Assembly (NCBI GenBank): GCA_964435015.1
Contig: CAYSXP010000006.1
Span: 8,079-72,078 of the forward strand
From: an uncultured Rikenellaceae bacterium
GTDB lineage: Bacteria; Bacteroidota; Bacteroidia; Bacteroidales; VadinHA17
DNA length: 64,000 nt
Reading direction: 5' to 3'
Numbering within the stretch: position 1 is the stretch's first letter; each line of letters opens with the position of its first letter. The position numbers and the translations under genes were made by a program. The notes under the pieces are model-generated. The model saw only the letters and a program-made list of their open reading frames with translations, was not told where the DNA came from and did not search any database. Shown here piece after piece: positions 6,972-58,371 of this stretch.

Positions 6972-8243
6972 TTACGGGTGCGTATATCCCTTGCGATATT
7001 CCCTTCTCAACAGCCCTGATGCTTCGGCGTTCCCTTTAATTGACCCTGAACTGACATCCCACCTGACAAGTGAGCCTGCATAAAAGGATATCATGGCCAG
7101 CTGGACCGCAGCAGTTGAAAAGAAAGCATCTTCCGTGGTACAGGTGAGCAGTTCCCTGTTTCTCATCCTGACGGCTTCAATGAAATTGGATACATGTCGT
7201 TCCTGCATGCCGGGTGTTGCTGCGGGAATCTCCTCCCGCAGGTTGTTGTTGTCGAACAGGATGACTTTCGAGTCCTCAGCAAAAAGAGTTCCTTTGTCGC
7301 CGTAGAACATGATTCCGTTATTGAACTCCCTTGCAACATCGCCTGTACCCCACAACCTGTGCTGCCAGACAACAGGCGCCTTGCTGAATGCCATTCCCGC
7401 GACAAGCGTGTCAGGCGTGGTTATCCGGCCCTTTAATACATTAATTCCTCCCGAGGCATAGAATTCGGATGGCATTCCCTCTCCCATTATATACCTTATT
7501 ATGTCGATATGATGAATACCCCAGTCGACAAGATGACCGTTCCCGTACTCTTTCTCGAGTCTCCATGAAATGTGTCCTATGCTTGGCCTGTATTCAAGTT
7601 TCGGGGCAGGTCCGCACCAGGCGTCCCAGTCCAGTGAAGGCGGCGGAGGCTGAATAGTCGTATCGGCGGGCTCGGGTATATAGTTGATCTGGGCATTGAT
7701 CTGATGAACTTTTCCTATTTTCCCCGAAGCAATCAGCTCCCTTGTTTTCCTGAACGCCTCACTCTGCCGGCGCTGAAAGCCAATCTGCACAATATTCCCG
7801 GCTTTCCTTGCCGCAGCCACCATGGCAAGGCCTTCCTGCACATCGTAGGCCAGTGGTTTTTCGCAATAGATATCAAAGCCTTTTTCGCAGGCCGCGATAA
7901 ACTGTAATGCGTGCCAGTGGGGAGGGGTGCCGATAAATATTGCCTGCAGCCCTTTCAGTTCCAGAAGCTCTTCGTAGAACTTGAATGTACGGGGCCTGAA
8001 TCCCTGGATTTTTTCAATTTCACCTGCACTGCCTTCAAGGTGTGCGGAGTCTACATCACATACTCCCAAAACTTCCGCTTCCCCGGTTTTCAGTGCAGCT
8101 TTTGTTATTACCATTCCATACCAGCCCGCACCAATCAGGCCGATCTTCAACTTGCTTTCCCCGGCTCGGTGCGGGAGCCAGACTGATGACACTGCTGCTG
8201 CAGCGCCCATTGATGCTGTTTCAAGAAATCGTCTTCTTTTCAT
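6972..8243 (-). CDS. Gfo/Idh/MocA-family oxidoreductase with twin-arginine (TAT) signal
   Basis: N-terminal MKRRRFLETASMGAAAAVSS, a Rossmann motif GLIGAGWYG, and the EKP motif (CEKPLA) typical of the family. Confidence 0.85.
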   Translation of the reverse strand: MKRRRFLETASMGAAAAVSSVWLPHRAGESKLKIGLIGAGWYGMVITKAALKTGEAEVLGVCDVDSAHLEGSAGEIEKIQGFRPRTFKFYEELLELKGLQAIFIGTPPHWHALQFIAACEKGFDIYCEKPLAYDVQEGLAMVAAARKAGNIVQIGFQRRQSEAFRKTRELIASGKIGKVHQINAQINYIPEPADTTIQPPPPSLDWDAWCGPAPKLEYRPSIGHISWRLEKEYGNGHLVDWGIHHIDIIRYIMGEGMPSEFYASGGINVLKGRITTPDTLVAGMAFSKAPVVWQHRLWGTGDVAREFNNGIMFYGDKGTLFAEDSKVILFDNNNLREEIPAATPGMQERHVSNFIEAVRMRNRELLTCTTEDAFFSTAAVQLAMISFYAGSLVRWDVSSGSIKGNAEASGLLRREYRKGYTHP

Positions 8244-27170: not shown

Positions 27171-27599
27171 GTGACACCCGGCGAACTCAAAAAACGGATC
27201 CCCGCGAGTGAACTTGAAATGATCACATCCAGGAGCAGCGGACCCGGCGGACAGAATGTGAACAAGGTCAATACAAAGGTTGAAATAAGGTTTAACGTCA
27301 AAAATTCACAGGCTCTGTCGGCTGCAGAAAAGAATCTGATCCTCCTCAGGCTGCAAAACCGGATAGCCGTCTCGGGCATTATACGAGTCAGATCACAGTC
27401 GGGAAGAAGCCAGGTACGCAACAGGGAGCTTGCCTCAGAGAGACTGTTTGTGATTCTCGCTGAAGCTCTTTCAACGGAACCTGAACGAATTCCTTCCGAA
27501 CCAACCAGGACGTCGGTAGAAAAGAGGCTCGGCGAAAAACGAAAAAGAGCGGATTTAAAAAAGATCAGAAAAACACCCGATCAGATAAATGATGATTAG
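27171..27599 (+). CDS. arfB: Alternative ribosome-rescue factor ArfB (peptidyl-tRNA hydrolase, GGQ domain)
   Basis: SSGPGGQNVNKVNTKVEIRF GGQ motif and a basic C-terminal tail. 142 aa. GTG start two nt after the GH78 stop. Confidence 0.9.
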   Translation: MTPGELKKRIPASELEMITSRSSGPGGQNVNKVNTKVEIRFNVKNSQALSAAEKNLILLRLQNRIAVSGIIRVRSQSGRSQVRNRELASERLFVILAEALSTEPERIPSEPTRTSVEKRLGEKRKRADLKKIRKTPDQINDD

Positions 27600-28313
27600 C
27601 CGGTCATTGATGACTGCATGTCATCCTTTCTGAATATACCCTTCCTGTGGCTGCTTCTGACATGCCGGCTGGCAGGCATGCGGATCCGGATGTGATAATT
27701 CCGCAGGAGTGCTTCGGTTTTTTTCAGCATACATATAATTATTTTTATCAAAGCCCGTTATAATGCAGCTTTTTGCAGAACAAAAGCAGTTGAAGTTTGT
27801 TACAGGTTTTGGCACAAATGTTGCAAGTACCGGGTTCAATGGATAAATAGTTCATTGAAGAACTGAGAACATTGATTGGAAAGCAGTTGGCAGCTGTTGT
27901 GTGGTATGAGCAGCTGAAAGGTTTTTTCAGAGGCGGACCGGAGATTTGCTTGAATTGTAACACGCTGATATGCAGTTGTTTTTAATAAGAAAGAATTAAA
28001 AAACAATTTTTATGTTGATAAATTAAAAACCGTGTTAATATTTTTAATTACCCGGGAGAACAATGTATTTATAGAATATATATTTTCGTCCCGATTTATT
28101 TTTTAACTAAAACCATAAAACAAGACAATTAACAGAAAAAGGTGATCGTTTTCATCGACAAATATGAATGCTAACAATAATGAGGTTGGTGCCCTCCTCG
28201 GCGGGGGCCGCCTCGTGGGTTGTTCTTCTGATGAAGAGCCTGGCGCGAAAACCATGATTTTTTCGCAAAACGTAATCCCAAACCAGTTAGTTAGCAACCG
28301 GAGTTCGGAGTTC

Positions 28314-29405
28314 ATGAACCGCTACTTCCCCCTAACAACTTCAGAATCGTGGAATGATTGGAAATGGCAGCTTCGTAATGCTTTTACGGGCCTTGAAGAT
28401 CTCAGGAAGATCATGAAGCTGACCCAGAAGGAGATACTGGCCATTAACAATCTCAAGGGGCGTCTGCCCCTGCGTATCACTCCTTATTTTGCATCCCTGA
28501 TATACCGTTCAAAACCATCTCATCCCTTGCGGAGAAATGTAGTGCCGGTGGTTGAAGAGCTCTTTGAAACCAGGATTGAGCAATCTGATCCTTTGCATGA
28601 AAGGGCTTTTTCTCCAGTCAGGGGCATTGTTCACAGATATCCTGACAGGGTGCTTTTTACCGTTACACAGGTATGTTCAAATTATTGCAGGTACTGCACC
28701 AGGTCACATTCAGTCGGAAGGCTGGATAAGCTGGGACGCCAGGACTTCGAGAAGGCTTTCTCGTACATTGCTTCGCACCGTGAGATCAGGGATGTTCTGG
28801 TAAGCGGCGGCGACCCGCTTACAATGACCGATGAGCTTCTTGATTATATACTTCATAATATCAGGAAGATAGAACATGTTGAGATGATACGTATCGGAAC
28901 CAGGGTCCCTGTGGTATTGCCTCAGAGGATAACTGACAAACTGGTAGGCATTCTGAAAAAATACCATCCCCTTTACATAAGCCTGCATTTTTCACATCCT
29001 GAAGAGATAACCGAAGAGTGTGCAAATGCATGCATTAAACTGGCCGATAACGGTTTCCCTCTCGGGAGCCAGACCGTTCTGCTGAAAGGAATCAACGACA
29101 GTGTTCCTGTGATGAAGGAGCTGATGCATAAGCTGCTTAAGATCAGGGTACGGCCATATTATCTTTATCAGTGTGATTTAATACCCGGCTCCGGCCATTT
29201 CAGAACAACAGTAAGGAAGGGTCTGGAAATTATCGAAGGGATGCGGGGATATACAAGCGGATATGCCGTTCCAACCTTTGTCATCGATGCTCCGGGCGGA
29301 GGAGGCAAGATCCCTCTCCTTCCCGGCTATGTCGTTGAGCACAACAGCGAACGCATCGTGCTGCGCAACTACAAGGGAGTATTGTGCGAATATCCCGAAA
29401 AATAG
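28314..29405 (+). CDS. KamA-family radical SAM/PLP aminomutase, lysine 2,3-aminomutase-like
   Basis: CSNYCRYCTR cluster motif, SGGDPL, YLYQCDLIPG, VIDAPGGGGK (PLP lysine) and an N-terminal WNDWKWQLRN. The ATG at 28314 is preferred over the ORF-track start at 28164. Confidence 0.9.
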   Translation: MNRYFPLTTSESWNDWKWQLRNAFTGLEDLRKIMKLTQKEILAINNLKGRLPLRITPYFASLIYRSKPSHPLRRNVVPVVEELFETRIEQSDPLHERAFSPVRGIVHRYPDRVLFTVTQVCSNYCRYCTRSHSVGRLDKLGRQDFEKAFSYIASHREIRDVLVSGGDPLTMTDELLDYILHNIRKIEHVEMIRIGTRVPVVLPQRITDKLVGILKKYHPLYISLHFSHPEEITEECANACIKLADNGFPLGSQTVLLKGINDSVPVMKELMHKLLKIRVRPYYLYQCDLIPGSGHFRTTVRKGLEIIEGMRGYTSGYAVPTFVIDAPGGGGKIPLLPGYVVEHNSERIVLRNYKGVLCEYPEK

Positions 29406-29415
29406 TTGTTCCCTG

Positions 29416-30405
29416 ATGAGAGTCGGAATTACATATGATCTGCGATCATGGTATCTTGACCGCGGATATTCCATGGAGGATACCGCAGAATTTGACAAGC
29501 AGGAAACAATTGATGCAATTGACAATGCACTTGTGCGCATGGGTTTTGAGACGGAACAGATCGGCAATTGTTTTCAGCTTATCGGTGCTCTTTCATCGGA
29601 TAAGCGGTGGGATATGGTCTTTAACATTTCAGAGGGCCTCTACGGCGACGGGCGCGAATCAGCCGTACCCGCTGTCCTCGATCAGTACAGAATCCCTTAT
29701 GTGTTCAGCGGACCAGTGGTACTTGGCGTCGCGCTCAACAAGCACCTTAGCCGTCTTATTGTATCAGCCGCAGGGGTGCCGGTAAGCCCTGGCGCTCTTG
29801 TATCACGCCCCGAAGATGTTGAGAAATGCAATCTCCGGTATCCCATGTTCATAAAACCGGTTTCTGAAGGAACAGGTAAGGGCATTACTGAAAAAAGCCT
29901 TGTGAGATCGCAGAAGGAACTCAGGGAAAGGGCCGAATTCATCTTGTCGCGGTTTAATCAGCCGGCGCTTGTCGAGGAATATCTGCCGGGAAGGGAGTTT
30001 ACAGTCGGGATTGTCGGCTCTGGCAATAACGCTGTTGCAATTGGCGGGATGGAGATAGAGTGCAGGAATAACCTGCCCTATTCTGTTGAAACCAAGGAAA
30101 ATTATCAGATGCTGTGCAAATACACTCCCGTTGCAACAGAGTATGAAGAAGAATGCAGGACCGTTGCCCTCAGTGCATGGAATGCCATTGGGGGAGTTGA
30201 TGGAGGAAGGGTTGATCTCAGGATCGACATAAACGGCAGGATGTGTTTCATAGAAGTGAACCCTCTTGCAGGCCTCCATCCCGTTCATTCAGACCTTCCC
30301 ATTCTTGCAAATATGAGCGGAATTAATTTCCAGTCGTTGATTGAAATGATAGTGATTTCAGCTTTAAAAAGGCATAATCTGAAATTGCCGGCGCCGCACA
30401 AATAA
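29416..30405 (+). CDS. ATP-grasp ligase, D-alanine--D-alanine ligase family (paralog 1)
   Basis: 329 aa from the ATG at 29416, 10 nt after the KamA stop. ATP-grasp C-terminal signature GGRVDLRIDINGRMCFIEVNPLAGL, and FIKPVSEGTGKGI. Confidence 0.8.
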   Translation: MRVGITYDLRSWYLDRGYSMEDTAEFDKQETIDAIDNALVRMGFETEQIGNCFQLIGALSSDKRWDMVFNISEGLYGDGRESAVPAVLDQYRIPYVFSGPVVLGVALNKHLSRLIVSAAGVPVSPGALVSRPEDVEKCNLRYPMFIKPVSEGTGKGITEKSLVRSQKELRERAEFILSRFNQPALVEEYLPGREFTVGIVGSGNNAVAIGGMEIECRNNLPYSVETKENYQMLCKYTPVATEYEEECRTVALSAWNAIGGVDGGRVDLRIDINGRMCFIEVNPLAGLHPVHSDLPILANMSGINFQSLIEMIVISALKRHNLKLPAPHK

Positions 30406-30491
30406 GGGAATAATCAACATCCGGATTAACATTTGAACATACGGATAATCTGACTTTCCGGGCTAATCGTTAAAAGCAGAATAATTTGCGA

Positions 30492-31463
30492 ATGAAGAAG
30501 AAAGTTTGCTGCATACTTTTTAATCAGCCGGGGAAGCATGCCCTGCCTGATGAACTCGATGTATTGAATCAGGTCGATTACGTAGGGGAGAACCTTGAAA
30601 AGCTTGGTATCGAATCATACCGGAAAGGTGTCACGGGTGATTTCATGCATGAGATCTCCATGATTGCCGGCGAGCGGCCCGATTTCGTATTCAACCTGGT
30701 GGAGTCGGTCGGCAACAAGGGAGAGTTATGCTATTTCATACCGGCCCTGCTTGGCATGCATTCCGTTCCATATACCGGAAACCCCGTGGAGGCAATGTTT
30801 ATCACCACAAGCAAGGCACTTTCCACTCAGATAATGGAGAAGGAAGGTATCAAAACACCGGCAACATTTTTCCCTTCGCAGTTCAGAAAGCTTGAACCGG
30901 GTAAAAGGTATATCATCAAACCTGTCTGGGAAGATGGCTCCCAGGGCATAACAGTTGATTCTGTCTTTACCTACTCGCCCGGATATGAAAACAACTTTGA
31001 GGAAAAAAATGATTCCCACTGGATCATCCAGGAGTATGTCGACGGAAGGGAATTCAACATCAGTGTTTTATCGGGAGCGGGCGGCCCGGAGGTTATGCCG
31101 CCGGCTGAAATGATCTTTCATGGTTATGATGAAGACATGCCTAAAATAGTCGATTTCAGGGCTAAATGGATCGAAGAAAGCTTTGAATACAGGAACACCA
31201 TAAGGGAATTTCCGGATTTGAAGCCTGATTCATTGCTAAAACAAAAGATCGACGAAACAGCTCTGAGGTGTTGGAATGTTTTCGGACTCAGGGGCTATGC
31301 CAGGGTTGACCTGAGAGTAGACGCGGCCGGCAATCCGCTGGTTATAGAAGTGAACGCAAATCCATGCATTTCGCCCGACAGCGGGCTGGTGGCAGCAACA
31401 ATGGAAGCAGGCATGGAGATGACTGAAGTGCTGTCCAGAATTATCAGCGACCTAAACAAATAA
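30492..31463 (+). CDS. ATP-grasp ligase, D-alanine--D-alanine ligase family (paralog 2)
   Basis: About 323 aa. Motifs YIIKPVWEDGSQGI and GYARVDLRVDAAGNPLVIEVNANPCIS. Confidence 0.8.
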   Translation: MKKKVCCILFNQPGKHALPDELDVLNQVDYVGENLEKLGIESYRKGVTGDFMHEISMIAGERPDFVFNLVESVGNKGELCYFIPALLGMHSVPYTGNPVEAMFITTSKALSTQIMEKEGIKTPATFFPSQFRKLEPGKRYIIKPVWEDGSQGITVDSVFTYSPGYENNFEEKNDSHWIIQEYVDGREFNISVLSGAGGPEVMPPAEMIFHGYDEDMPKIVDFRAKWIEESFEYRNTIREFPDLKPDSLLKQKIDETALRCWNVFGLRGYARVDLRVDAAGNPLVIEVNANPCISPDSGLVAATMEAGMEMTEVLSRIISDLNK

Positions 31464-31470
31464 GATATTC

Positions 31471-31950
31471 ATGAGTGTGGTAGTTAAGGGAATAGAGAAG
31501 CAGGAAATTAAAGCGATCGAGGAAATTCTGCGTTCCACGGATTTCTTTTATGAATTTGAAATTCAGACTGCTCTCGGTATTGCAAATGAAACCCTGGCCC
31601 AGGGTTCGGAAGAGTCGGGATACTACTGGATGAAGATAAGCACCGACGATGGCCTGAAGGCATTTGCCAATTACGGAAAGAACGTATTTTCAACCCATTC
31701 CTGGGATTTATACTGGATTGCCGTGCATGGAAACTCACGAAACAGCAAATACGGCTCGGTCCTTCTCGGGGCTGTGGAAAAAGATGTAAAGGAAAAAGGG
31801 GGCAGGATCCTGTGGGTTGAAACTTCCGGGAGGCCGCTTTATGCACCGACAGAAGCTTTCTACCTGAAAAACGGTTATGAACTTCAGGCGACACTCAGGG
31901 ATTTTTATGGCCCGGGCGATCCAAAAAGGATTTATTCCAAAACTCTTTGA
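31471..31950 (+). CDS. Small GNAT-family N-acetyltransferase
   Basis: 159 aa. GNAT core WIAVHGNSRNSKYGSVLLGAVEKDVKEKGG...FYLKNGY. Starts 7 nt after the ATP-grasp 2 stop. Confidence 0.75.
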   Translation: MSVVVKGIEKQEIKAIEEILRSTDFFYEFEIQTALGIANETLAQGSEESGYYWMKISTDDGLKAFANYGKNVFSTHSWDLYWIAVHGNSRNSKYGSVLLGAVEKDVKEKGGRILWVETSGRPLYAPTEAFYLKNGYELQATLRDFYGPGDPKRIYSKTL

Positions 31951-31997
31951 CGGCTCGCTGTTTTGGTTGTCTGATAATTGATATAACAATTTAAGGA

Positions 31998-32366
31998 ATG
32001 AGAGGTCTGAACGCGATATTATTGCTGGTATTATCGAATGCCTTTATGACTGTGGCATGGTATGGACATCTGCGGTTTAAAACATTGCCCGGGTTCACCA
32101 ATCTGAGTCTTCTGACAATAATTCTTCTCAGCTGGTTTATTGCTCTTTTCGAATATTCACTGCAGGTTCCTGCAAACAGAATCGGTTTTGAAGGTAACGG
32201 AGGTCCGTTTTCGCTTGTGGAACTTAAGGTTATTCAGGAGGTTATATCCATCCTGATTTTTACTTCCTTTACACTTGTGGTGTTTAAAAGTGAACATTTC
32301 CGTCTGAATCATCTCATTGCCTTTGTATTTCTTATTCTCGCCGTTTATTTTGTCTTCAAGAAATAA
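31998..32366 (+). CDS. DMT-superfamily small membrane protein (DUF486-like)
   Basis: 122 aa with 4 transmembrane segments. The N-terminus LLLVLSNAFMTVAWYGHLRF is typical of DUF486/DMT half-transporters. Confidence 0.7.
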   Translation: MRGLNAILLLVLSNAFMTVAWYGHLRFKTLPGFTNLSLLTIILLSWFIALFEYSLQVPANRIGFEGNGGPFSLVELKVIQEVISILIFTSFTLVVFKSEHFRLNHLIAFVFLILAVYFVFKK

Positions 32367-32371
32367 AAGCT

Positions 32372-32818
32372 TCAAATGAGATTGGAATTGTAGTAATCAG
32401 GGTTGCCGGTTACCTCTTCCCCAAGCCAGTCGGGTTTTTCAAACTGATCGCTTTCGGTCTCCAGTTCAATTTCAGCTAAAATGAGCCCCTCATGTTTTCC
32501 GTGGAATACATCCACTTCATAGGTATGTCCTCCCCACGGTATGCTGTACCTCGATTTAATTATCCTTTCCGGAAGACAAACTTCCATCATCTCCTGCGCC
32601 ATTGACAGGGGAAGTTCAAGCTCCCATTCATACCTGGCAAGATTATCGCTGTCTGCCCGGCTCTTTACAGTCAGCAAAGCCTTTTCTCCGTAAATACGCA
32701 GACGTACGGTTCTAAGCGGATCAACGGAAAAATATCCCTGCCTGATATTGACAGCTTCCGGCAGGTTTACATTGAAACCGGGTTTTACAAGGAATTTTCT
32801 TTCAATCTCCTTTCCCAT
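32372..32818 (-). CDS. CYTH-domain protein (triphosphate tunnel metalloenzyme / class IV adenylate cyclase-like)
   Basis: 148 aa. N-terminal EIERKFLV (ExExK) motif and a beta-rich repeat pattern typical of CYTH. Confidence 0.8.
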   Translation of the reverse strand: MGKEIERKFLVKPGFNVNLPEAVNIRQGYFSVDPLRTVRLRIYGEKALLTVKSRADSDNLARYEWELELPLSMAQEMMEVCLPERIIKSRYSIPWGGHTYEVDVFHGKHEGLILAEIELETESDQFEKPDWLGEEVTGNPDYYNSNLI

Positions 32819-36492: not shown

Positions 36493-37281
36493 TTACCAGT
36501 TTTTCAGGGTCTTAACCCTGGTATCAGCAACTTTTGCAAGTTTAACTTTTTCCTGAACATTCTTTTCATCATTTGCAATTGAATTCAGGAGACGTTCAGC
36601 GTCCTCCCTGGAGATTCCCTGTTGTGATTGCTGCTGCTGCTGTTGCTGTTGCTGCTGCTGCTGCTGTTGTTGTTGTTGTTGTTGTTGCTGCTTGTTATTT
36701 TGTTCCTGCTGCTTTTCCTGATCCTTATTGTCGTTCTCCCGGTTCTGTTCTTTTTGCCGGTCCTTGTTCTGGTCCCCGTTTTCCTGTTTATTTTTATCCT
36801 GCTTTTGCTGTTCCTCCTGCTTCCTGAGCAAATCCTGTGCAAAAGCGAGATTATATTTTGCTTCGGGACTTCCGGGCTTCAGCCTCAGGGAATTTTTATA
36901 TGCTTCTATGCTTTCCTGCAGCTTCCCTCCCATCAGAAGTGAATTGCCCTGATTGTAGAATGCCGACGACTTTTTTTCGGGATCATCGGTCATAGCCGAA
37001 TTACCTCCAAACTGTTTGACTGCTTCTTCGTATTTTTCCTGTTTGTAAAGAGCATCGCCTATATTAAAAACGGCATCGGGGAGCATCTTGTTTTTATCAA
37101 GCGCCCTGCGGTAGGAAATCTCTGATTCGGCATATTTATCCTTATCATATTCCCTGTTTCCCTGCCTGATGAATTTTTTCTCAGCCTGCCCCGTTAATGT
37201 CAGGGGAAAAAGGCATAATGAGCAAACAGCAGTTATGACACCATGTTTTATGCAGGAGCTCTTATGTTTTATGATATGCAT
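36493..37281 (-). CDS. batC: BatC-like TPR protein with low-complexity K/Q/E/N region and poly-Gln tract
   Basis: TPR repeats (YNQGNSLLMGGKLQESIEAYKNSLRLKP) and position in the operon. Confidence 0.7.
   Translation of the reverse strand: MHIIKHKSSCIKHGVITAVCSLCLFPLTLTGQAEKKFIRQGNREYDKDKYAESEISYRRALDKNKMLPDAVFNIGDALYKQEKYEEAVKQFGGNSAMTDDPEKKSSAFYNQGNSLLMGGKLQESIEAYKNSLRLKPGSPEAKYNLAFAQDLLRKQEEQQKQDKNKQENGDQNKDRQKEQNRENDNKDQEKQQEQNNKQQQQQQQQQQQQQQQQQQQQQSQQGISREDAERLLNSIANDEKNVQEKVKLAKVADTRVKTLKNW
36619..36690 (-). repeat. CAG/CAA trinucleotide tract encoding Q21-S-Q2 inside batC
   Basis: The plus strand reads (CTG/TTG)n. The translated run of 21 consecutive Gln was counted from the ORF. Confidence 0.9.
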
Positions 37282-44646: not shown

Positions 44647-45303
44647 ATGGAAAATAGTATTTTTCAACAGTCAGACAGATATTCATCGGCCAGGGAAAGA
44701 ATGGTAAGAGTCCAGATTATTGACCGCGGTGTCCGGGACCAGGCTGTTCTGAGCGCCATGCGGAAAGTACCGCGGCATATGTTTGTTCCCCGGGATAATC
44801 TCGGGGAGGCCTACGATGACAATCCGCTTCCCATTGGTTATGGGCAAACAATCTCCCAGCCGTATATTGTGGCTTACATGACGGAGATTGTTCAGCCAAC
44901 GATCCGTAAGAACGCCCTTGAAATAGGGACCGGATCGGGTTACCAGGCGGCAGTGCTTGCCGAGATCGTCAGGCACGTATACACAATTGAGATAGTTCCG
45001 GAACTTGCAGAAATTTCAGCCGCAAGGCTTAAGGAGCTGGGATACCGGAATGTGACTGTAAAACATGGTGACGGCTACCTGGGCTGGTCCGAGCATTCTC
45101 CGTTTGACATTGTGATAATCACTGCTGCAGTTGAACAAATACCGCAGCCTTTGATTGATCAGCTTGCAGACAATGGCCGCCTGGTGGTACCTGTCGGAGC
45201 CCCTTATGCTGTTCAGGAGCTTATACTTATTGAGAAGAAGAACGGAAAGATACAGAAAAGCCGGCTGACTTTCGTTCGTTTTGTACCATTTAAAAGGTTG
45301 TGA
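44647..45303 (+). CDS. pcm: Protein-L-isoaspartate O-methyltransferase
   Basis: GQTISQPYIVAYM, LEIGTGSGYQAAVLA and the C-terminal VRFVPF. 218 aa. Confidence 0.92.
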   Translation: MENSIFQQSDRYSSARERMVRVQIIDRGVRDQAVLSAMRKVPRHMFVPRDNLGEAYDDNPLPIGYGQTISQPYIVAYMTEIVQPTIRKNALEIGTGSGYQAAVLAEIVRHVYTIEIVPELAEISAARLKELGYRNVTVKHGDGYLGWSEHSPFDIVIITAAVEQIPQPLIDQLADNGRLVVPVGAPYAVQELILIEKKNGKIQKSRLTFVRFVPFKRL

Positions 45304-45539: not shown

Positions 45540-45747
45540 GCCTGGTTCACTGACGTATTTATAACCACACAACAGACTATCCGGGTTACTGGTTGATTTT
45601 ATCCTGAATTTCCGGTCCTGAACTGTGCCGGAGTGTGATAATCATGTTTATTTGCAATGATATAGTTCTAACGGCGACCGCAGTTAATCCGGTACGCGTA
45701 CTGAACACCAGGGTGGATATGAAACAAAAATTAAATTGCTGCGACAA

Positions 45748-47286
45748 ATGAATGAGGATAATGATGTGCTTTACATTCCCAGACATTACAATTCAATAGA
45801 ATTGTGGAAGGATATTACGGAAGCACAGTGGAACGATGCCAGATGGCAGCAGAGGAACTCAATCCGGAGTGTTGAACAACTTGCAGGAGTGATAGATCTG
45901 AATGATCATCAGAAAAATGAAATAGGCAGAACCATAAAAGCTTTAAGGAGGCAGGGAAAGGAACCATTGCGTATTACTCCTTATTATGCATCCCTGATGT
46001 GTGCTGATCCGTTTCATCCGGTAATGCCTGTGGGAGAAAAACCAAACAAACGCGTTGACCCGGTTTTCTGGCAAAGTGTGCCCACTCCGGCCAATCTGCT
46101 TTTTCCCGATACAGGCGCAGAGGGCGCAATGTCGGAGAGTTCGAGAAGTTACGGTGCGGCATACCAGAGATATCCAAACAGGGTCGCTCTTTTTGTAGCG
46201 GAAAATACCAGTTGTGCATCATACTGTGTACACTGCCAGAGGGCCAAGTCGCTTGATGGCACCGTTGAAGTAAGCACCGCTGAAATCAACAGGGGATTGT
46301 TTTACATAGGATATAACAAAAATATTAATGAAGTTCTGGTTACCGGTGGTGATGCTCTGATGATCAGCAAAAACCGGTTGAAATACATCCTGGAAGAACT
46401 GAGCAGGATACCTCATCTGCGAGTGATAAGGATAGCCACAAGAGTACCGGTGGTATTGCCTATGGCGATAACGGATGATCTGCTGGAACTCATAAATGTT
46501 TCCGCAAACAGATATAACTCCGGTCATGAAAAATATGTGTACTTCATGACTCATATAAATCACTATCATGAGATAACCCGCGAGCTGGCCATTGCTTCAA
46601 AAAAGATCCGGAGTCACGGATTTACAATCCGCAACCAGACCGTCTTGCTGAATCATGTGAATGATTATTACAAAACTCTTGCAGAAACACTCAGAAGAAT
46701 GTTCTGGGTCGGTATCCATCCATATTATTTATTGCAGTGCCATAAGGAGAAAGGAATTGTTCATTTCATTACACCGGTGCAGATCGGCAAAATATACATA
46801 AAGCATCTGCAGGGCTGGATTTCTGGTATAACAATGCCGCGTTATGCAGCCAATATTGAAGGTGGCGGAGGAAAAGTGCTTCTGATGCCTTCAGGGCACG
46901 ATACTCTCGGTGAAGAAATCCATATAGATGAAAAAATCTCTGAGAGCTTTGCGATGGTTTCCACATGGGACGATAAAAAGATATACCGGTATGAATCCCT
47001 GGGAAGAGCTACAAGGGAAGAGTTTGAAGAGGCTGTCAGTCTGATGGATAAATTCATTGGAAGAAAAGGAGTGTTTCTGCCAAAAGTTATTATTGTTGAT
47101 GAAAAGGGAAATCATGTTGAGACCACCAACAGGTCAAAGCTTCCTGTTTTTGCACGACTCAGGAAATCCCAGCTTTTGGGATATGAGATCCATGAAAAGG
47201 ACATGCCGCTGACCAACCCTCAGGAAATTCTTCCCGAGCTTGAAGAACAGTTTGCTGTGTCGAAATATTCCCGGCACGGGAAATGA
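45748..47286 (+). CDS. Divergent KamA-family radical SAM aminomutase with C-terminal extension (substrate unlikely to be lysine)
   Basis: CASYCVHCQR cluster motif, TGGDAL and the GGGGK PLP lysine. It has LLQCHKEKG and AANIEGGGGK where lysine 2,3-aminomutase has QCD and VDAPGGGGK. The tail beyond the core is over 100 aa longer than in the other KamA paralog in this window. The ATG at 45748 is preferred over the TTG at 45736. Confidence 0.8.
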   Translation: MNEDNDVLYIPRHYNSIELWKDITEAQWNDARWQQRNSIRSVEQLAGVIDLNDHQKNEIGRTIKALRRQGKEPLRITPYYASLMCADPFHPVMPVGEKPNKRVDPVFWQSVPTPANLLFPDTGAEGAMSESSRSYGAAYQRYPNRVALFVAENTSCASYCVHCQRAKSLDGTVEVSTAEINRGLFYIGYNKNINEVLVTGGDALMISKNRLKYILEELSRIPHLRVIRIATRVPVVLPMAITDDLLELINVSANRYNSGHEKYVYFMTHINHYHEITRELAIASKKIRSHGFTIRNQTVLLNHVNDYYKTLAETLRRMFWVGIHPYYLLQCHKEKGIVHFITPVQIGKIYIKHLQGWISGITMPRYAANIEGGGGKVLLMPSGHDTLGEEIHIDEKISESFAMVSTWDDKKIYRYESLGRATREEFEEAVSLMDKFIGRKGVFLPKVIIVDEKGNHVETTNRSKLPVFARLRKSQLLGYEIHEKDMPLTNPQEILPELEEQFAVSKYSRHGK

Positions 47287-53147: not shown

Positions 53148-54569
53148 ATGAGAAAACGACTTGTTTTTCTGTTTCTGCTTCTGACACCTGCCATTCTCTT
53201 CGGGCAGCAAAAGAAAGGCTATGAAATAAAAATAACCATAAGCGGATTGCCAGATTCAACAATATACCTGGCATATCATTTTGGTGACAGGCAATACCTT
53301 AAGGATACATTAAAACTCGACAGAATGGGATCCGGCCTGTTTTCGGGTGCCGGGGAGCTGCCGCAGGGGATCTATATGGTAGTATTGCCCGGGAAACAGT
53401 ATTTTGAAATCCTTGCTTCTGACGACCAGTTCTTTCAGGTTTCATGCTCGTTCCCTGACTACCTCAATACATTGAAATTTTCGGGATGCGACGAGAATTC
53501 AAAGTTCCTGGATTACCAGAGGAGATGGATTGAGATGCAAAAGCAGGCTTCAGAAATAAATAAAAAATTACAGGCCAACAGGCAGAACCCTGATTCCCTG
53601 GGGATACTGTCTGAAAAACTCCGGGTACAGGAGCGGTCAATGAAGGCATACCTGAATTCCGTGGTGGAGGAAAACAAGGGAAATCTTTTGTCGCTTCTGG
53701 TCAGGTCAATCCTGCCGGTTGAGATCCCTGAAATCAGGATACCTGACAATACCCGCAATCCCGATTCCCTTCGGTGGATCAAAACATACGCTTACACCAA
53801 GAATCATTTCTTTGACAACATTAGCCTGACCGATGAGAGGCTGCTGCGCACCCCTGTTCTGCAGGCAAAGCTGAAGGCTTTCTTTTCAGACGTGGTAATT
53901 CAGGCGCCTGACTCAATCAATAATGAGATTGACCGGATAATGGGAAAGGTGGAGGGAAACTACAGAATTTACCAGTTTGTAGCTGTTTACCTTTTCAACC
54001 ATTTCAGGGAGAGTGAAATAATGGGACACGATGCAGTGCTTGTCAAGCTTGCCGATGATATTTACCTTTCAGGCAAAGCCGACTGGGTAACGAATGAATT
54101 CAGGGATAACCTCAGAAAAGAAGTGGACGTGATACGGCCCAATCTTATTGGCCGAAAAGCCGTAGATCTTGTAATGGATTCATACAAAGGTATACATGTT
54201 TCATTGTATGACATCCGTAAGGAATTCACCATCCTGTATTTCTGGGAGCCGGATTGCGGACACTGCAGGGAAGCTACCCCGAAACTGAAATCATTCTATG
54301 AAGAAAACAAGGATCGCGGCATTGAGATTTTTGCTGTTTGCACAACGGCGGAAAGGGACAAGTGGACAAAATACATCGAGGAACATAATCTGACCTGGAT
54401 CAACGGATGGGATCCGGACCGGCAGTCCAATTACGGATATTATTATAATGTCAGATCAACTCCCCTGATTTATATCCTCGACAGGAATAAGAACATCATT
54501 GCAAAAAAGCTGGGAGTTGATGATATTGGTCCCTTTATCGAGAATTACAGGAAGTATTTCAGCAAATAG
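53148..54569 (+). CDS. TlpA/AhpC-like thioredoxin-fold lipoprotein with N-terminal DUF5106-like domain
   Basis: Signal peptide from the ATG at 53148. C-terminal thioredoxin fold with FWEPDCGHCRE (CxxC). Confidence 0.8.
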   Translation: MRKRLVFLFLLLTPAILFGQQKKGYEIKITISGLPDSTIYLAYHFGDRQYLKDTLKLDRMGSGLFSGAGELPQGIYMVVLPGKQYFEILASDDQFFQVSCSFPDYLNTLKFSGCDENSKFLDYQRRWIEMQKQASEINKKLQANRQNPDSLGILSEKLRVQERSMKAYLNSVVEENKGNLLSLLVRSILPVEIPEIRIPDNTRNPDSLRWIKTYAYTKNHFFDNISLTDERLLRTPVLQAKLKAFFSDVVIQAPDSINNEIDRIMGKVEGNYRIYQFVAVYLFNHFRESEIMGHDAVLVKLADDIYLSGKADWVTNEFRDNLRKEVDVIRPNLIGRKAVDLVMDSYKGIHVSLYDIRKEFTILYFWEPDCGHCREATPKLKSFYEENKDRGIEIFAVCTTAERDKWTKYIEEHNLTWINGWDPDRQSNYGYYYNVRSTPLIYILDRNKNIIAKKLGVDDIGPFIENYRKYFSK

Positions 54570-55581
54570 GATCGTTGTTATTTCTTAACCAGGAAACCAG
54601 ATCGTAAAGGCTGTCAAATTCAATGCAGCAATCGGACCCGATATATTTCCAGCAATACGGCAATGACTGTTCTGATTCAATTCGGGGCGCTGAACCGGAT
54701 GAAATGGTGCGGTAACCTGCTCTTGCAAGGGCTTTTTTTGTCCAGTAATCATTTTTGCCTTCAACTGAAAGGGCCAGGGTTCCCCTGTATTCATTTCTGA
54801 CCGTGAAGGTTCCATTCTCCTCATTGAAGGTAATTGCTTTTGTATCGAAAAGGTTGCCAAAAGATTTCCTGAGCATCATATCTTCAGGCGCACCTTCAGT
54901 TAACTCATTTTCAAGTATCAGCCATATTTTATCCGACTGGTTTACCGCTGTGTCAAAATCATGTGTGGAATAAATTATAGTCTTGTTTTCATTCCTGGAG
55001 AGTTCCCTGAGCAGGTGGATCACTTCATATTTGTTCTTAATATCGAGAAAAGCCGTTGGCTCGTCCATGAGGATGAGCCTGGTTTCCTGTGCCAGTGCCA
55101 TTGCTATCATTGCCCTCTGCCTTTCACCATCGGACAGCTCAGTCAGAAGCCTGCCGGAAAAGTCCGACATTCCCGTCTGCTCCAGCGCTTTCAGAACAGC
55201 TTTTCTGCTGACGGCGTCCATGGTGCCTAACCAGTTGGTATGAGAATACCTTCCCATCGAGACAAGATTGAACACGGTAGTATTGGGGATCCTGACAGCC
55301 TCGGTTGAAACATAGCATGTGGTCAGGGCAAGTTCACGCCTTGAATACTCCGCCATGCTCCTGCCCGCAGTATTGAGGCTTCCTCCCAATGCAGGGATCA
55401 ATCCTGCAATAGTTTTCAGAAGGGTGCTTTTCCCGATCCCGTTTTTCCCGATAACTGAAATGAGCTCTCCTTCGAAAGCCCTTGCACTCAATGGCGGAAG
55501 AAGTCTTTTGCCGGTTTTGCCCGATTTGTAACCTATTTCCAGCGACTTCAGCGACAGTATTTCCTTACCTTCAAATTTCAT
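54559..55581 (-). CDS. ABC transporter ATP-binding protein (FecE/BtuD-type) with ~90-aa C-terminal extension
   Basis: Walker A GKNGIGKST, signature LSDGERQR, Walker B LILMDEP. At 340 aa it is clearly longer than the ATPase core alone. Confidence 0.85.
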   Translation of the reverse strand: MKFEGKEILSLKSLEIGYKSGKTGKRLLPPLSARAFEGELISVIGKNGIGKSTLLKTIAGLIPALGGSLNTAGRSMAEYSRRELALTTCYVSTEAVRIPNTTVFNLVSMGRYSHTNWLGTMDAVSRKAVLKALEQTGMSDFSGRLLTELSDGERQRAMIAMALAQETRLILMDEPTAFLDIKNKYEVIHLLRELSRNENKTIIYSTHDFDTAVNQSDKIWLILENELTEGAPEDMMLRKSFGNLFDTKAITFNEENGTFTVRNEYRGTLALSVEGKNDYWTKKALARAGYRTISSGSAPRIESEQSLPYCWKYIGSDCCIEFDSLYDLVSWLRNNNDPIC

Positions 55582-56648
55582 CAGAAAATCTCAGAATATT
55601 TTCGGTTATGCATAATTACCCAGATAACAACCGGGATCCCGATAAGAGCTGTTATTGAATTAACAGGAAGGACATTGTCGGACCACGGCATCTGTGATAT
55701 GATATCGCTGGCAAGCATCACTGCTCCACCGGTCAGTATGGTTCCGGGTATAAGTATTCTGTGATCTGATGTCATAAACAGAATCCTGGCCAGGTGCGGA
55801 ACTGCGATGCCTATAAATCCGATCGGTCCGCAGAAAGCTGTTACTGTTCCGGTAAGTATGCTTGTCGATGAGATTATTGCAAATCTCGACAATTTCAGGT
55901 TCACTCCTATGGTTCTGGCATAATTCTCTCCCAGCAGCAGGGCGTTCAGGGGTTTAACCGTTAATACCGACAGGCTTATGCCGGCAGCCACGGAAACAAG
56001 CAGAACGGCAAGCTGGGTTGAGGTGAGATTTCCCAGGCTTCCCATGGTCCACACAATATAGGCCTTGAGCATGGTTTCGTTGCTGAAATATTGCATGATG
56101 CTTACCACGGCAGATATCCCGCTCGACAGCATTATTCCGATAATAAGTACCGTCAGGATGTTTCCGACCCTGGAGGCAATAATCATCATTATGACCATTA
56201 TCACACCTGCTCCGGCCCATGCTGCCATTGCAACGGACCAGTTTCCCATCCCGCGGATGGCATCAGGGGTGATACCTGCTGAGAATCCGAGCATGATAAC
56301 GGCAACACCCAGGCTGGCGCCTGAACTCAGGCCAAGTACATACGGACCGGCCATCGGATTCCTGAAGAGGGTCTGCATCTGCAAGCCGCTCATCGACAGG
56401 GCGGCCCCAACCATTAAAGCAGTAACGGCCTTCGGGAGCCTGAACCTGAAGAGAATGATTGCCGCGTGATCCCCGGCCGGCCCCGTAAGTGCCCGTAATA
56501 TGTCGGCAGGACGGATACTGACTGATCCGAGAAACAGGTCGAGGATGAAAAGGAGAATTGCAATGATCAGCAGGAACAACAGGATAACTTTCTGACCGCC
56601 TCCCGTGATCACTGAAGCATTGAACGGTATTTTTTCTTTGGTTTTCAC
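55581..56648 (-). CDS. FecCD/BtuC-family ABC permease
   Basis: About 10 transmembrane segments and FecCD-type sequence (GPIGFIGIAVPHLAR). A GTG at 56648 avoids overlap with the upstream binding-protein gene, whereas the longest ORF extends to 56723. Confidence 0.8.
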   Translation of the reverse strand: MKTKEKIPFNASVITGGGQKVILLFLLIIAILLFILDLFLGSVSIRPADILRALTGPAGDHAAIILFRFRLPKAVTALMVGAALSMSGLQMQTLFRNPMAGPYVLGLSSGASLGVAVIMLGFSAGITPDAIRGMGNWSVAMAAWAGAGVIMVIMMIIASRVGNILTVLIIGIMLSSGISAVVSIMQYFSNETMLKAYIVWTMGSLGNLTSTQLAVLLVSVAAGISLSVLTVKPLNALLLGENYARTIGVNLKLSRFAIISSTSILTGTVTAFCGPIGFIGIAVPHLARILFMTSDHRILIPGTILTGGAVMLASDIISQMPWSDNVLPVNSITALIGIPVVIWVIMHNRKYSEIF

Positions 56649-56655
56649 AGGGGGA

Positions 56656-57840
56656 TTAATTAACCAGCCTGTAGTAAAACAGTTTGTGCCCTTTGAAAAG
56701 TTCAGGATGCAATATTGCCGCAATATCCTTCAGTATGACATCAGGAGAAAGACATCCGCTTTCCCAGTAATCATTTCCGCCATCGCTGCCCAGCCTGTTA
56801 TTGTTATTGTACATGTTCCCGTTTAAAAAACAGGGCAGGTTCCTGAGCCGCGAATCAATGGCAGTAATTTCCTCCCTCCTGTTTACATTTCCGGTGTTGA
56901 GCCAGAAATCAGCATTTACCGCCCTGGAATAAACCGATTCCAGTGCCATGGGCATGGAAATCCTTGACTTTTTGTCGCTCCATAAATATTCACCGCCTGC
57001 ATCCCTGATCAGAGCGCTGATATATGAGTCACCGGGTGAAATAAACCATGTGTCCTTAAAAGGCATTCCAAGCAGTACCTTCTTCCGCATATTAAGCCCC
57101 GAATCAACACAGGCCCTCAGGTCGAGATATCTTTTCTGCACATTCAGGAATATTGAATCAGCCATTGCATCCCTGCAATACAAGGCCCCAATGACCTTTA
57201 TCCACTCTGCCTTGCCCAATGGTTCATTTTCAAGATAATCGGCATTGAAAATAATCCTTACACCCAGATTCCGCAGTTTTCCGAGATAGCCTGCAGATTC
57301 GCTTCCGATCCCATAGATCATTATCAGATCCGGCGACAGGCTGATGATTTTTTCCTTGTCAATATTGTCTTCGTAGCCTATATCGCTGATTTTCCCGTTT
57401 TCCGCCAGCTCCCTGAGTATGGGATTATAAATGTATCTGGTTCCTGAAAAGCCGCAGATGCTTTTCCTTTCACCAAGCGCATTTATCATGGCCAGATGGG
57501 TTGTTGACATGCAGATGATTTTTTTCAGCGGGACGTGAATGATTTTCGAGCTGTCGGCTCCCAAGGGAGCAGCATTTCCTTCCGGAACAAGATACCATTC
57601 CTGCACAATACCTTCGGCTCCCTGCCACGGATCCAGGATCCTGAGTTGCGAATACCCGTTCATTCTTATCAGTGATACCCTCTTCGCAATTTTCATCATG
57701 TTAATTTCCTGCACATTGACAATTTCCGTTCCCTCAGACACCCTGCCTGCGCATGATATAAGGGAAATCTGAATTGCCATCAGGAAAGCTGCCTGGCAAA
57801 GTCGGGTCCGATGAAAAAAAATGTACAGGAAGCACTTCAT
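56656..57840 (-). CDS. Periplasmic binding protein (BtuF/FecB-type, cobalamin/siderophore class)
   Basis: 394 aa with a lipoprotein-like signal (ISLISCAG). First gene after a cobalamin riboswitch and upstream of the FecCD permease and ATPase. Confidence 0.75.
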   Translation of the reverse strand: MKCFLYIFFHRTRLCQAAFLMAIQISLISCAGRVSEGTEIVNVQEINMMKIAKRVSLIRMNGYSQLRILDPWQGAEGIVQEWYLVPEGNAAPLGADSSKIIHVPLKKIICMSTTHLAMINALGERKSICGFSGTRYIYNPILRELAENGKISDIGYEDNIDKEKIISLSPDLIMIYGIGSESAGYLGKLRNLGVRIIFNADYLENEPLGKAEWIKVIGALYCRDAMADSIFLNVQKRYLDLRACVDSGLNMRKKVLLGMPFKDTWFISPGDSYISALIRDAGGEYLWSDKKSRISMPMALESVYSRAVNADFWLNTGNVNRREEITAIDSRLRNLPCFLNGNMYNNNNRLGSDGGNDYWESGCLSPDVILKDIAAILHPELFKGHKLFYYRLVN

Positions 57841-57929
57841 TTCTTAAAATCTGTTCTCATTTGAGCTGCCGGGAAAACTGGTTTGGAATCAGGTGACGAC
57901 TCTGGCCTTTATTTCCCGAAAGCCTGAAT

Positions 57930-58135
57930 ATTTCTTTTTCTGGCAGGTCTTCTGACTTGTCCCGGTTTTAAAAAGCCTTCCCATTCCTTTCAGGCAGAAA
58001 CAGTGGCAGGTATTTTTCAAAACCTTCATCACGCAAATGGTGACGGGGCATCACAGCAGCGGGTACTGTAGCGGATTTGCACCGCTTTCCCTTTTCATTA
58101 TAACGATTATGAGCCGTTATAACACCATCAGGGGC
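57930..58135 (-). promoter_or_regulatory. Cobalamin (B12) riboswitch
   Basis: The minus strand reads AAAAGGGAAAGCGGTGCAAATCCGCTACAGTACCCGCTGCTGT ... GCCACTG ... AAGTCAGAAGACCTGCCAG (B12 box). A P2-like hairpin GTTATAACG/CGTTATAA(T) lies upstream. The boundaries are approximate. Confidence 0.85.
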
Positions 58136-58371
58136 CAAAGGTAAATAAATTTACGGACAGGGCAAATGTCAGGAATGAACAGTCACCGGCATGACAGCTG
58201 GATGTTAAGTATTCCAGAGTAGTTTCCGGTTTTCACTGAAAGTGAGTGATGGAGGAAATGCCATACGGATTCAGGTCCGGGTACGGCAGCAACCCGATAT
58301 GATGGTTTAACTGATTCTCCGCTTTTTTCAGCAATGATTGCGGAAGCTGTATCGATGTTGTTTTCGGGGGG

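Follow-up and report, generated by a model that had tools for sequence, protein, structure and literature searches.

The 64-kb window analyzed here (64,000 nt of contig CAYSXP010000006.1 from an uncultured Rikenellaceae bacterium, positions 8,079 to 72,078) carries a compact gene cassette that may direct the synthesis of a beta-lysine peptide. Its first gene encodes a KamA-family radical-SAM aminomutase and is followed by genes for two ATP-grasp ligases related to D-alanine-D-alanine ligase (Ddl), termed AG1 and AG2, a small acetyltransferase of the GNAT family, and a DMT_6/DUF486 membrane protein (Table 1). The five genes are co-directional, span 28164-32366, and are separated by successive gaps of 10, 86, 7, and 47 nt, with a convergent gene closing the block. 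An earlier note on this DNA had described the same layout, and the open reading frame coordinates agree with it. The block start given there, 28314, proved to be an internal ATG of the KamA gene. Codons 1 to 50 counted from 28164 were kept as coding in an alignment with 22 relatives, and because their third positions changed synonymously, the KamA start was placed at 28164. An alternative TTG start of AG2 at 30486 would shorten the gap to AG1 from 86 to 80 nt. The intergenic region between arfB and KamA measures 565 nt, and GC content was even across the region.

The cassette belongs to a large family. When AG2 was searched against 1.84 billion cluster representatives, 932 families (50% identity clusters) matched at E<1e-30, and scanning a single genome for each GTDB species yielded at least 596 AG2 loci. 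For synteny, the best 80 of these at least 596 loci were compared by tblastn with the window proteins. Loci with an AG2 of less than 52% identity were treated as distant and the remainder as close relatives, and the denominators differ per gene. AG1 was located upstream of AG2 in 37 of 39 distant and 33 of 33 close loci, KamA was present in 26 of 30 and 20 of 20, respectively, and the GNAT gene followed AG2 in 33 of 34 distant and 18 of 31 close loci. The order KamA-AG1-AG2-GNAT was kept in most of the 80+ loci, and the same core was found amid unrelated flanks in L084 to L087 and L089 to L091 (Table 1). Since dozens of independent genomic contexts show this gene order, the arrangement is not due to chance.

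Natural fusions cover every adjacent pair of the core genes, always in gene order (Table 1); those of AG1 with KamA and with AG2 come from other phyla. Taken with the synteny, the fusions argue strongly, on comparative grounds, that the genes serve a single pathway and that AG1 acts on what KamA produces. The co-occurrence of KamA, two ATP-grasp genes, and a GNAT across phyla, on which the earlier note had staked its proposal, was borne out by the synteny counts and the collinear fusions, and these four genes stood as a functional unit. The spacer between AG1 and AG2 (30406-30491), 86 nt long here, varies among relatives: several have the two genes overlapping or a few nucleotides apart, and it measures 50-140 nt in a sublineage lacking the GNAT gene.

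The KamA protein aligned to residues 10-367 of lysine 2,3-aminomutase (LAM) from Clostridium subterminale (PDB 2A5H) with 447 bits. In LAM, Asp293 and Asp330 bind the epsilon-ammonium group of lysine. The CSNYCRYC cluster, D293 (YQCD), and D330 and K337 (IDAPGGGGK) were in register with LAM, and the CxxxCxxC cysteines, both aspartates, and the lysine that binds pyridoxal phosphate were invariant in 56 of 56 cassette KamA homologues, in line with what had previously been aligned by eye. Among the NCBIfam models, AblA scored best (492.3 bits; TIGR03820 cutoff, 525.4), with glutamate 2,3-aminomutase at 440 and arginine 2,3-aminomutase at 394 bits. The protein passed the KamA subfamily model TIGR00238 (368 bits; cutoff, 199) and scored 246 bits against the EpmB model TIGR03821, under its cutoff of 369. 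About 31 amino acids follow GGGGK in cassette KamA versus 79 in LAM. The zinc-binding cysteines of LAM are C268 with C375, C377, and C380; in the 56 homologues the C268 equivalent was N, S, D, or E and never Cys. Judged by these sequence features, cassette KamA is a distinct short-form clade with predicted lysine-type substrate determinants.

The window contains another KamA-family radical-SAM gene, a divergent one, at 45736-47286 (+). Its 516-aa product is 34% identical to the first over 365 aligned residues and has an extra C-terminal region of ~130 aa. It carries His and Asn at the two lysine-binding Asp positions, and these positions thus vary with function. The gene adjoins a protein-isoaspartate methyltransferase gene (44647-45303).

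AG1 and AG2 are mutually 24% identical. Both matched the Pfam domain Dala_Dala_lig_C (89.5 bits for AG1 and 65 bits for AG2), and their best scores against the Ddl models of NCBIfam were 134.6 and 96.9 bits, respectively, both under the cutoff of 243. The only solved sequence relatives found in the PDB search were Ddl/Van ligases and biotin carboxylases. The AlphaFold (AF2) model of AG2, with a predicted local distance difference test score (pLDDT) of 95.4, gave template modeling (TM) scores of 0.76-0.83 against the closest solved folds, which were Ddl structures at ~20% identity. For the comparison of catalytic and pocket residues, 66 AG1 and 79 AG2 sequences were aligned with Escherichia coli DdlB. 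The DdlB residues E15, K97, K144, K215, R255, D257, E270, and N272 were kept in both families. The retention of this catalytic set argues that AG1 and AG2 should be active acyl-phosphate-forming ligases, with an acyl donor predicted to bear an amino group. The domain matches and the catalytic residues also support the earlier description of two Ddl-family ATP-grasp enzymes that keep the Mg-ATP region.

The substrate pockets of both ligases differ from that of DdlB. In AG1, H63 is replaced by Y and S150 by T, Y216 is deleted or replaced by E, and L282 is replaced by an invariant Asp (D293 of the AG1 in the window), which lies in an HSD motif and is the signature of the family. In AG2, the changes are S150 to G/A, Y216 to W, L282 to G, Y210 to V, and E68 to L, and the signatures are AKW and NxNPC. 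The HSD and AKW signatures persist across phyla. In a related Bacteroidales locus (L046), a true Ddl (508.8 bits; cutoff, 457) is encoded 4.4 kb downstream of AG1 and AG2. Because a genuine Ddl sits beside them in this relative, AG1 and AG2 are not housekeeping Ddl enzymes, and scores far under the cutoffs and the changed pocket residues led to the same rejection. The concern of the earlier note that the ligases might be the organism's own Ddl is thereby answered by way of the related genome, and the label "D-alanine--D-alanine ligase" that pipelines attach to AG1 and AG2 is almost certainly wrong.

The GNAT matched PF00583 (Acetyltransf_1) with 28.9 bits (cutoff, 20.7). In NCBIfam, only RimI models matched, weakly (25 bits), and no other family did at E up to 1e-3. 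AblB proteins are ~270-300 aa long, and the earlier impression that this GNAT is smaller than AblB held. Against PDB 2R7H, a structural-genomics entry titled "putative D-alanine N-acetyltransferase," the GNAT scored 93 bits (1e-25). The cassette GNAT on the Oleidesulfovibrio alaskensis-like contig L091 is 99% identical to 2R7H, and by this identity 2R7H is evidently the cassette GNAT of an Oleidesulfovibrio/Desulfovibrio strain.

A further acetyl-group enzyme accompanies the core in part of the family. A GNAT-HDAC-like protein of ~580 aa (HDAC, histone deacetylase) is encoded in 16 of the 80 loci, either in the interval from KamA to AG1 or in its vicinity. The protein combines a weak GNAT-like N-terminus with a histone-deacetylase/acetylpolyamine-amidohydrolase domain (PF00850, 250 bits), and in L087 the HDAC-like protein is fused with the cassette GNAT (GNAT-HDAC-GNAT, 750 aa). 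No homologue of it was found in the 64-kb window. An acetyl-lysine/acetyl-polyamine-type deacetylase as partner suggests that the cassette acetyl group is carried by an epsilon-type amine and is removable.

The DMT_6/DUF486 protein matched PF04342 with 136 bits, covering positions 2-104 of the 104-position profile. Its gene accompanies the cassette in 14 of 31 close loci and in none of the 34 distant ones. It is regarded as a lineage-specific neighbor outside the core, possibly an accessory transporter. Both the GNAT and the DMT protein are thus present as first described, but the membership of the latter in the unit was not upheld, and its proposed role as exporter of the product is weak because the gene is confined to the close Bacteroidales relatives and the family has no conserved exporter.

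Table 1. Features of the cassette region in the 64-kb window, and related loci and fusion proteins
Feature	Coordinates	Strand	Description
arfB	27171-27599	+	
Sigma-54-type -24/-12 promoter-like site (putative)	27810-27825	+	TGGCACAAATGTTGCA; ~340 nt upstream of KamA start
Conserved noncoding block	28013-28088	+	direct repeats TGTTGATAAA (28013) and TGTTAATATTT (28033), 20 nt apart; TGTTAATA-type
-7-like box	28081-28088	+	TATTTTCG; downstream end of conserved block
Conserved 5-bp hairpin	28141-28156	+	GGTGA/GATGA-6 nt-TCATC; just 5' of KamA ATG
KamA-family gene	28164-29405	+	413 aa
AG1 ATP-grasp gene	29416-30405	+	329 aa
AG2 ATP-grasp gene	30492-31463	+	323 aa
GNAT gene	31471-31950	+	159 aa
DMT_6/DUF486 gene	31998-32366	+	122 aa
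CYTH gene	32372-32818	-	convergent; closes the five-gene block
L084			5.7-Mb genome; core KamA-AG1-AG2-GNAT
L085			Syntrophobacteraceae DRH4; core KamA-AG1-AG2-GNAT
L086			Spirochaetota metagenome-assembled genome (MAG); core KamA-AG1-AG2-GNAT
L087			Gammaproteobacteria MAG; core KamA-AG1-AG2-GNAT
L089			core KamA-AG1-AG2-GNAT
L090			cultured Desulfovibrio mangrovi (CP104208, ~3.558-3.564 Mb); core KamA-AG1-AG2-GNAT
L091			Oleidesulfovibrio alaskensis-like contig; core KamA-AG1-AG2-GNAT
KamA-AG1 fusion			~750-820 aa; AG1 at KamA C-terminus
AG1-AG2 fusion			~640-730 aa; AG1 N-terminal
AG1-AG2-GNAT fusion			944 aa
AG2-GNAT fusion			~510-530 aa
GNAT-HDAC-like gene	L046:5282-7024		also in L042, L044, L050, L051, L055, L057, L058, L062, L065, L068, L069, L076, L080, L083, L035, L087, L088, L090

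Upstream of KamA, several candidate control elements were found. The site TGGCACAAATGTTGCA, which reads TGGCAC-N5-TTGCA, is the sole exact match to TGGCAC-N5-TTGCW in the window (0.07 expected). Of 23 close relatives, 12 have the motif TGGCAY-N5-TTG at the corresponding position; its background frequency is 0.016 per kb. In the Desulfobacterota loci (3 of 3), a gene for a sigma-54 enhancer-binding protein (Sigma54_activat) lies immediately upstream of the cassette, and TGGCAT-N5-TTGCT sites precede KamA. Sigma-54-dependent transcription is documented in Bacteroidia (PMC12316311), and we infer that the site in the window is a putative sigma-54 promoter. Paired GGAAC-N7-8-GTTCC palindromes were observed upstream of the sigma-54 promoter in L090 (4297-4406) and L091 (4316-4423); they are candidate sites for the adjacent enhancer-binding protein.

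Closer to the KamA gene, the conserved noncoding block with its direct repeats and -7-like box was near-invariant in ~18 closest relatives, and the surrounding intergenic DNA was unconserved. This block is probably the primary promoter together with a regulator-binding site. In the alignment, the G/A alternation of the hairpin just 5' of the KamA ATG preserves pairing with the U of the opposite arm (G-U or A-U), and the element is likely a translation-initiation hairpin. A riboswitch upstream of KamA was considered and rejected: no Rfam family matched the KamA leader at the gathering threshold or at E up to 5, and the conserved stretch 28164-28313 is coding, with synonymous substitutions. A generic scan for sigma-70 promoters and terminators gave no more matches than shuffled sequence.

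With moderate confidence, we propose from these comparisons that KamA, AG1, AG2, and the GNAT may form one pathway to an N-acetylated beta-lysine di- or tripeptide or short oligomer, held as an intracellular, regulated metabolite. Judging from its conserved residues, short-form KamA would isomerize L-lysine to beta-lysine in the first step. In the second and third steps, AG1 and AG2 would each form one amide bond through an acyl-phosphate, as their fold, catalytic residues, and fusions suggest. AG1 would couple beta-lysine with an amino acid or a second beta-lysine; its invariant Asp, at the position of the Ddl D-Ala2 side-chain pocket, might bind the epsilon-ammonium group as the beta-amine attacks an activated amino acid. 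AG2, with smaller acceptor-pocket residues (Y210, L282, and E68 to V, G, and L), would then extend the AG1 product. In the fourth step, the GNAT would acetylate a remaining amine, and where the HDAC-like partner is present, it could remove an N-epsilon-acetyl group. In the lineage of the window, the DUF486 membrane protein may have been co-opted for transport.

An intracellular, regulated metabolite is favored over a secreted antibiotic because no exporter is conserved and the control elements point to inducible sigma-54 regulation, and also because the cassette is chromosomal and vertically inherited in this lineage. Favored candidate roles of the product are a compatible solute, a polyamine-like molecule, or a nitrogen-rich molecule of anaerobes. 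A broader proposal is more tentative, although quite possible: a widespread pathway of anaerobes (at least 5 phyla), with or without the HDAC-like partner and with sigma-54-type elements in the Desulfobacterota and Bacteroidales loci examined, would produce a previously unknown class of reversibly acetylated beta-lysine oligoamides.

The cassette shares features with several known systems. AblA and AblB make N-epsilon-acetyl-beta-lysine in methanogens and some bacteria. As there, a lysine 2,3-aminomutase gene is followed by a GNAT gene, and AblA is the best NCBIfam model of cassette KamA. However, the cassette has two ATP-grasp ligases between mutase and GNAT, its KamA is short, lacks the C-terminal zinc domain, and scores under the AblA cutoff, and its GNAT, at 159 aa, had no AblB-family match in the NCBIfam library, which presumably includes AblB. 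EpmB is also a short KamA-family enzyme without the LAM C-terminal domain, but cassette KamA scores 246 bits against 369 for that model, and its partners are ATP-grasp ligases rather than a lysyl-tRNA synthetase paralogue like EpmA.

Closer parallels to the ligase steps are offered by peptide-forming enzymes. N-acetylglutaminylglutamine amide (NAGGN) is made by Ngg, which combines a GNAT with an ATP-grasp enzyme, and AsnO. A GNAT and an ATP-grasp enzyme would likewise yield a small N-acetylated peptide solute here, and GNAT-ATP-grasp fusions appear in both systems; the likeness is one of architecture, and the cassette differs in its Ddl-like ligases, the lack of an amidotransferase, and a radical-SAM-derived beta-amino acid. 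AG1 and AG2 share the fold of the Ddl/Van ligases and retain all of their catalytic residues for ATP, Mg, and acyl-phosphate, whereas identity is ~20%, the scores are 135 and 97 against 243, and pocket residues are replaced. BacD/YwfE, RizA, TabS, and DdaF are stand-alone ATP-grasp enzymes that build di- and tripeptides without a nonribosomal peptide synthetase, and a sequential ligase pair has precedent. To our knowledge, none of these enzymes uses beta-lysine or is fused to KamA, and they show no sequence relation to AG1 and AG2 beyond the superfamily, the PDB searches having returned only Ddl and biotin carboxylases. By the sequence scores, the cassette proteins are placed outside the AblA equivalog, the EpmB family, the Ddl families, and the AblB-type family. 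By analogy, the cassette may work like a hybrid of the AblA/AblB route and ATP-grasp/GNAT peptide-solute or L-amino-acid-ligase chemistry.

Other explanations were weighed against this proposal. One alternative is that the cassette yields a bioactive beta-lysine compound for secretion, for instance a metallophore or an antibiotic-like polycation, with acetylation and deacetylation serving self-protection or pro-drug activation and a DMT or MFS (major facilitator superfamily) protein serving export. Streptothricins do bear beta-lysine chains, and a GNAT gives streptothricin resistance; GNAT and HDAC-like deacetylase pairs exist in the family, a DUF486 gene lies downstream in the lineage of the window, and a divergent MFS gene adjoins the cassette in L084 and L087. 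Nevertheless, we regard such a compound as unlikely, given that no transporter is conserved family-wide (DMT6 in 0 of 34 distant loci), that the four-gene core lacks tailoring enzymes, immunity genes, and antibiotic-cluster regulators, and that in Bacteroidales the cassette is vertically inherited at a fixed chromosomal position without plasmid matches. Attachment of beta-lysine to a macromolecule, as in beta-lysylation of elongation factor P (EF-P) or peptide tagging of proteins, appears decidedly improbable. The EpmB model stays under its cutoff, the modeled AG2 appears to have a compact small-molecule Ddl fold rather than that of RimK or TTL, the module contains no conserved target or carrier gene, and the adjacency of the ribosome-rescue gene arfB, which together with a weakly RimI-like GNAT could hint at such a role, is limited to close relatives of the window's lineage. 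EpmB supplies beta-lysine for EF-P and the RimK and TTL ATP-grasp enzymes modify proteins, so precedents exist; a link to EF-P modification or ArfB was still rejected on the EpmB score and the narrow distribution of the ArfB neighbor.

If KamA acted on ornithine, arginine, a lysine derivative, or some other substrate in place of lysine, the product would not be a beta-lysine compound. The score below the AblA cutoff, the high glutamate and arginine aminomutase scores, and the structurally distinct clade without the zinc/C-terminal domain speak for this; both epsilon-ammonium-binding aspartates are invariant, however, whereas the other paralogue in the window has H/N and glutamate 2,3-aminomutase carries Lys and Asn in their place, and we rate it very unlikely that lysine is not the substrate. 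Slightly less plausible still is a role of AG1 and AG2 as alternative cell-wall dipeptide ligases that remodel peptidoglycan termini in the manner of Van ligases, with KamA and the GNAT supplying or modifying an unusual residue. In both sequence and structure the two ligases indeed come nearest to the Ddl and Van enzymes, and the AG2-GNAT pair of L072 is situated downstream of a murC-ftsA-ftsZ cluster. Yet the D-Ala pocket residues S150, Y216, and L282 are changed, MurF-, VanH-, or VanX-like genes are not associated with the cassette, a genuine Ddl coexists in L046, and fusion to a radical-SAM aminomutase is without precedent in wall synthesis.

Several observations weigh against the pathway from lysine to an acetylated beta-lysine peptide. 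KamA scores below the AblA equivalog cutoff (492 versus 525), and the 56 cassette homologues lack the zinc/C-terminal domain of LAM; the stereochemistry of KamA, and even its exact substrate, could differ from those of LAM. The reading of the AG1 and AG2 pockets rests on a sequence alignment at ~20% identity. Two loci (L072:431-9612 and L081:7932-9490) have AG2 and GNAT without KamA within 8 kb, and L088:8001-12427 has an AG1-AG2 fusion and HDAC without KamA within 8 kb; the ligase/acetylation module can thus apparently use other amines. The GNAT gene is absent in 13 of 31 close relatives (L017-L030, e.g., L018:3223-3228), and acetylation is therefore dispensable in part of the lineage. According to MAG and sample names, the source habitats are mostly freshwater sediment, peat, groundwater, and digesters, and thus do not point to a salt-specific osmolyte. 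As to novelty, no published description of the cassette was found in the literature, and the amidoligase survey of Iyer et al. (2009) may already list the neighborhood.

If the proposed beta-lysine peptide pathway is true, its product would be a new metabolite, polyamine-like or a compatible solute, and AG1 and AG2 would be the first ligases with a Ddl fold to be devoted to a beta-amino acid. Beta-lysine has a handful of known fates, and a cassette present in at least 596 species-level genomes would add another. A function would also be defined for two large Ddl-like families whose members are mis-annotated across genomes and MAGs numbering in the thousands. Cultured Desulfovibrio carries the cassette, and for one component a crystal structure (2R7H, an entry without an assigned function) is already solved, making the system directly testable.

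Some alternative roles and candidate members were rejected. Lysine fermentation was set aside, since no kamDE, kdd, kce, or kal-like genes were found among the annotated recurring neighbor clusters, as was an anti-phage defense system, since PADLOC gave no matches. A mobile or plasmid-borne trait was rejected on 0 tblastn matches in 72,556 plasmids (1e-20) and the even GC content. ArfB, CYTH, and UDG accompany the cassette only in loci whose AG2 reaches 52% identity or more, a pattern that reflects common descent and not a functional link, and they were not counted as members of the system; ArfB adjacency was seen in 18 close-relative loci at variable distance.

Further observations concern the surroundings of individual loci. 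In the close relatives without a GNAT gene, AG2 is followed by the DUF486 gene or by CYTH or UDG genes. The AG2-GNAT pair of L072 directly follows a murC-ftsA-ftsZ-ftsZ-yqeY cluster, and the AG1-AG2 fusion and HDAC gene of L088 lie among aryl-polyene or fatty-acid-type genes. In L084 (11385-15733) and L087 (12610-17208), two MAGs that share a neighborhood, the cassette adjoins another predicted peptide-modification set, consisting of an AstE/AspA-like enzyme, a RimK-like ATP-grasp protein (ATPgrasp_ST), a 7TM-transglutaminase, and a RimB-like protease, and the divergent MFS transporter gene is situated upstream of the KamA gene. In L046 (1818-3748), the genes immediately upstream of KamA encode a GCS2-type carboxylate-amine ligase and an N-formylglutamate amidohydrolase-like protein, a pair that had no counterpart in the other fetched loci.

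Elsewhere in the window, a cobalamin riboswitch (57925-58144, minus strand, 89.7 bits) was found upstream of a BtuF/FecCD/ABC-ATPase transporter operon (54559-57840). This BtuFCD-like transporter and its riboswitch lie ~25 kb from the cassette and are ordinary and unrelated to it. The gene at 36493-37281 on the minus strand, which encodes a tetratricopeptide repeat (TPR) protein belonging to the Bat (aerotolerance) operon, includes a CAG/CAA repeat that specifies 23 consecutive glutamines.

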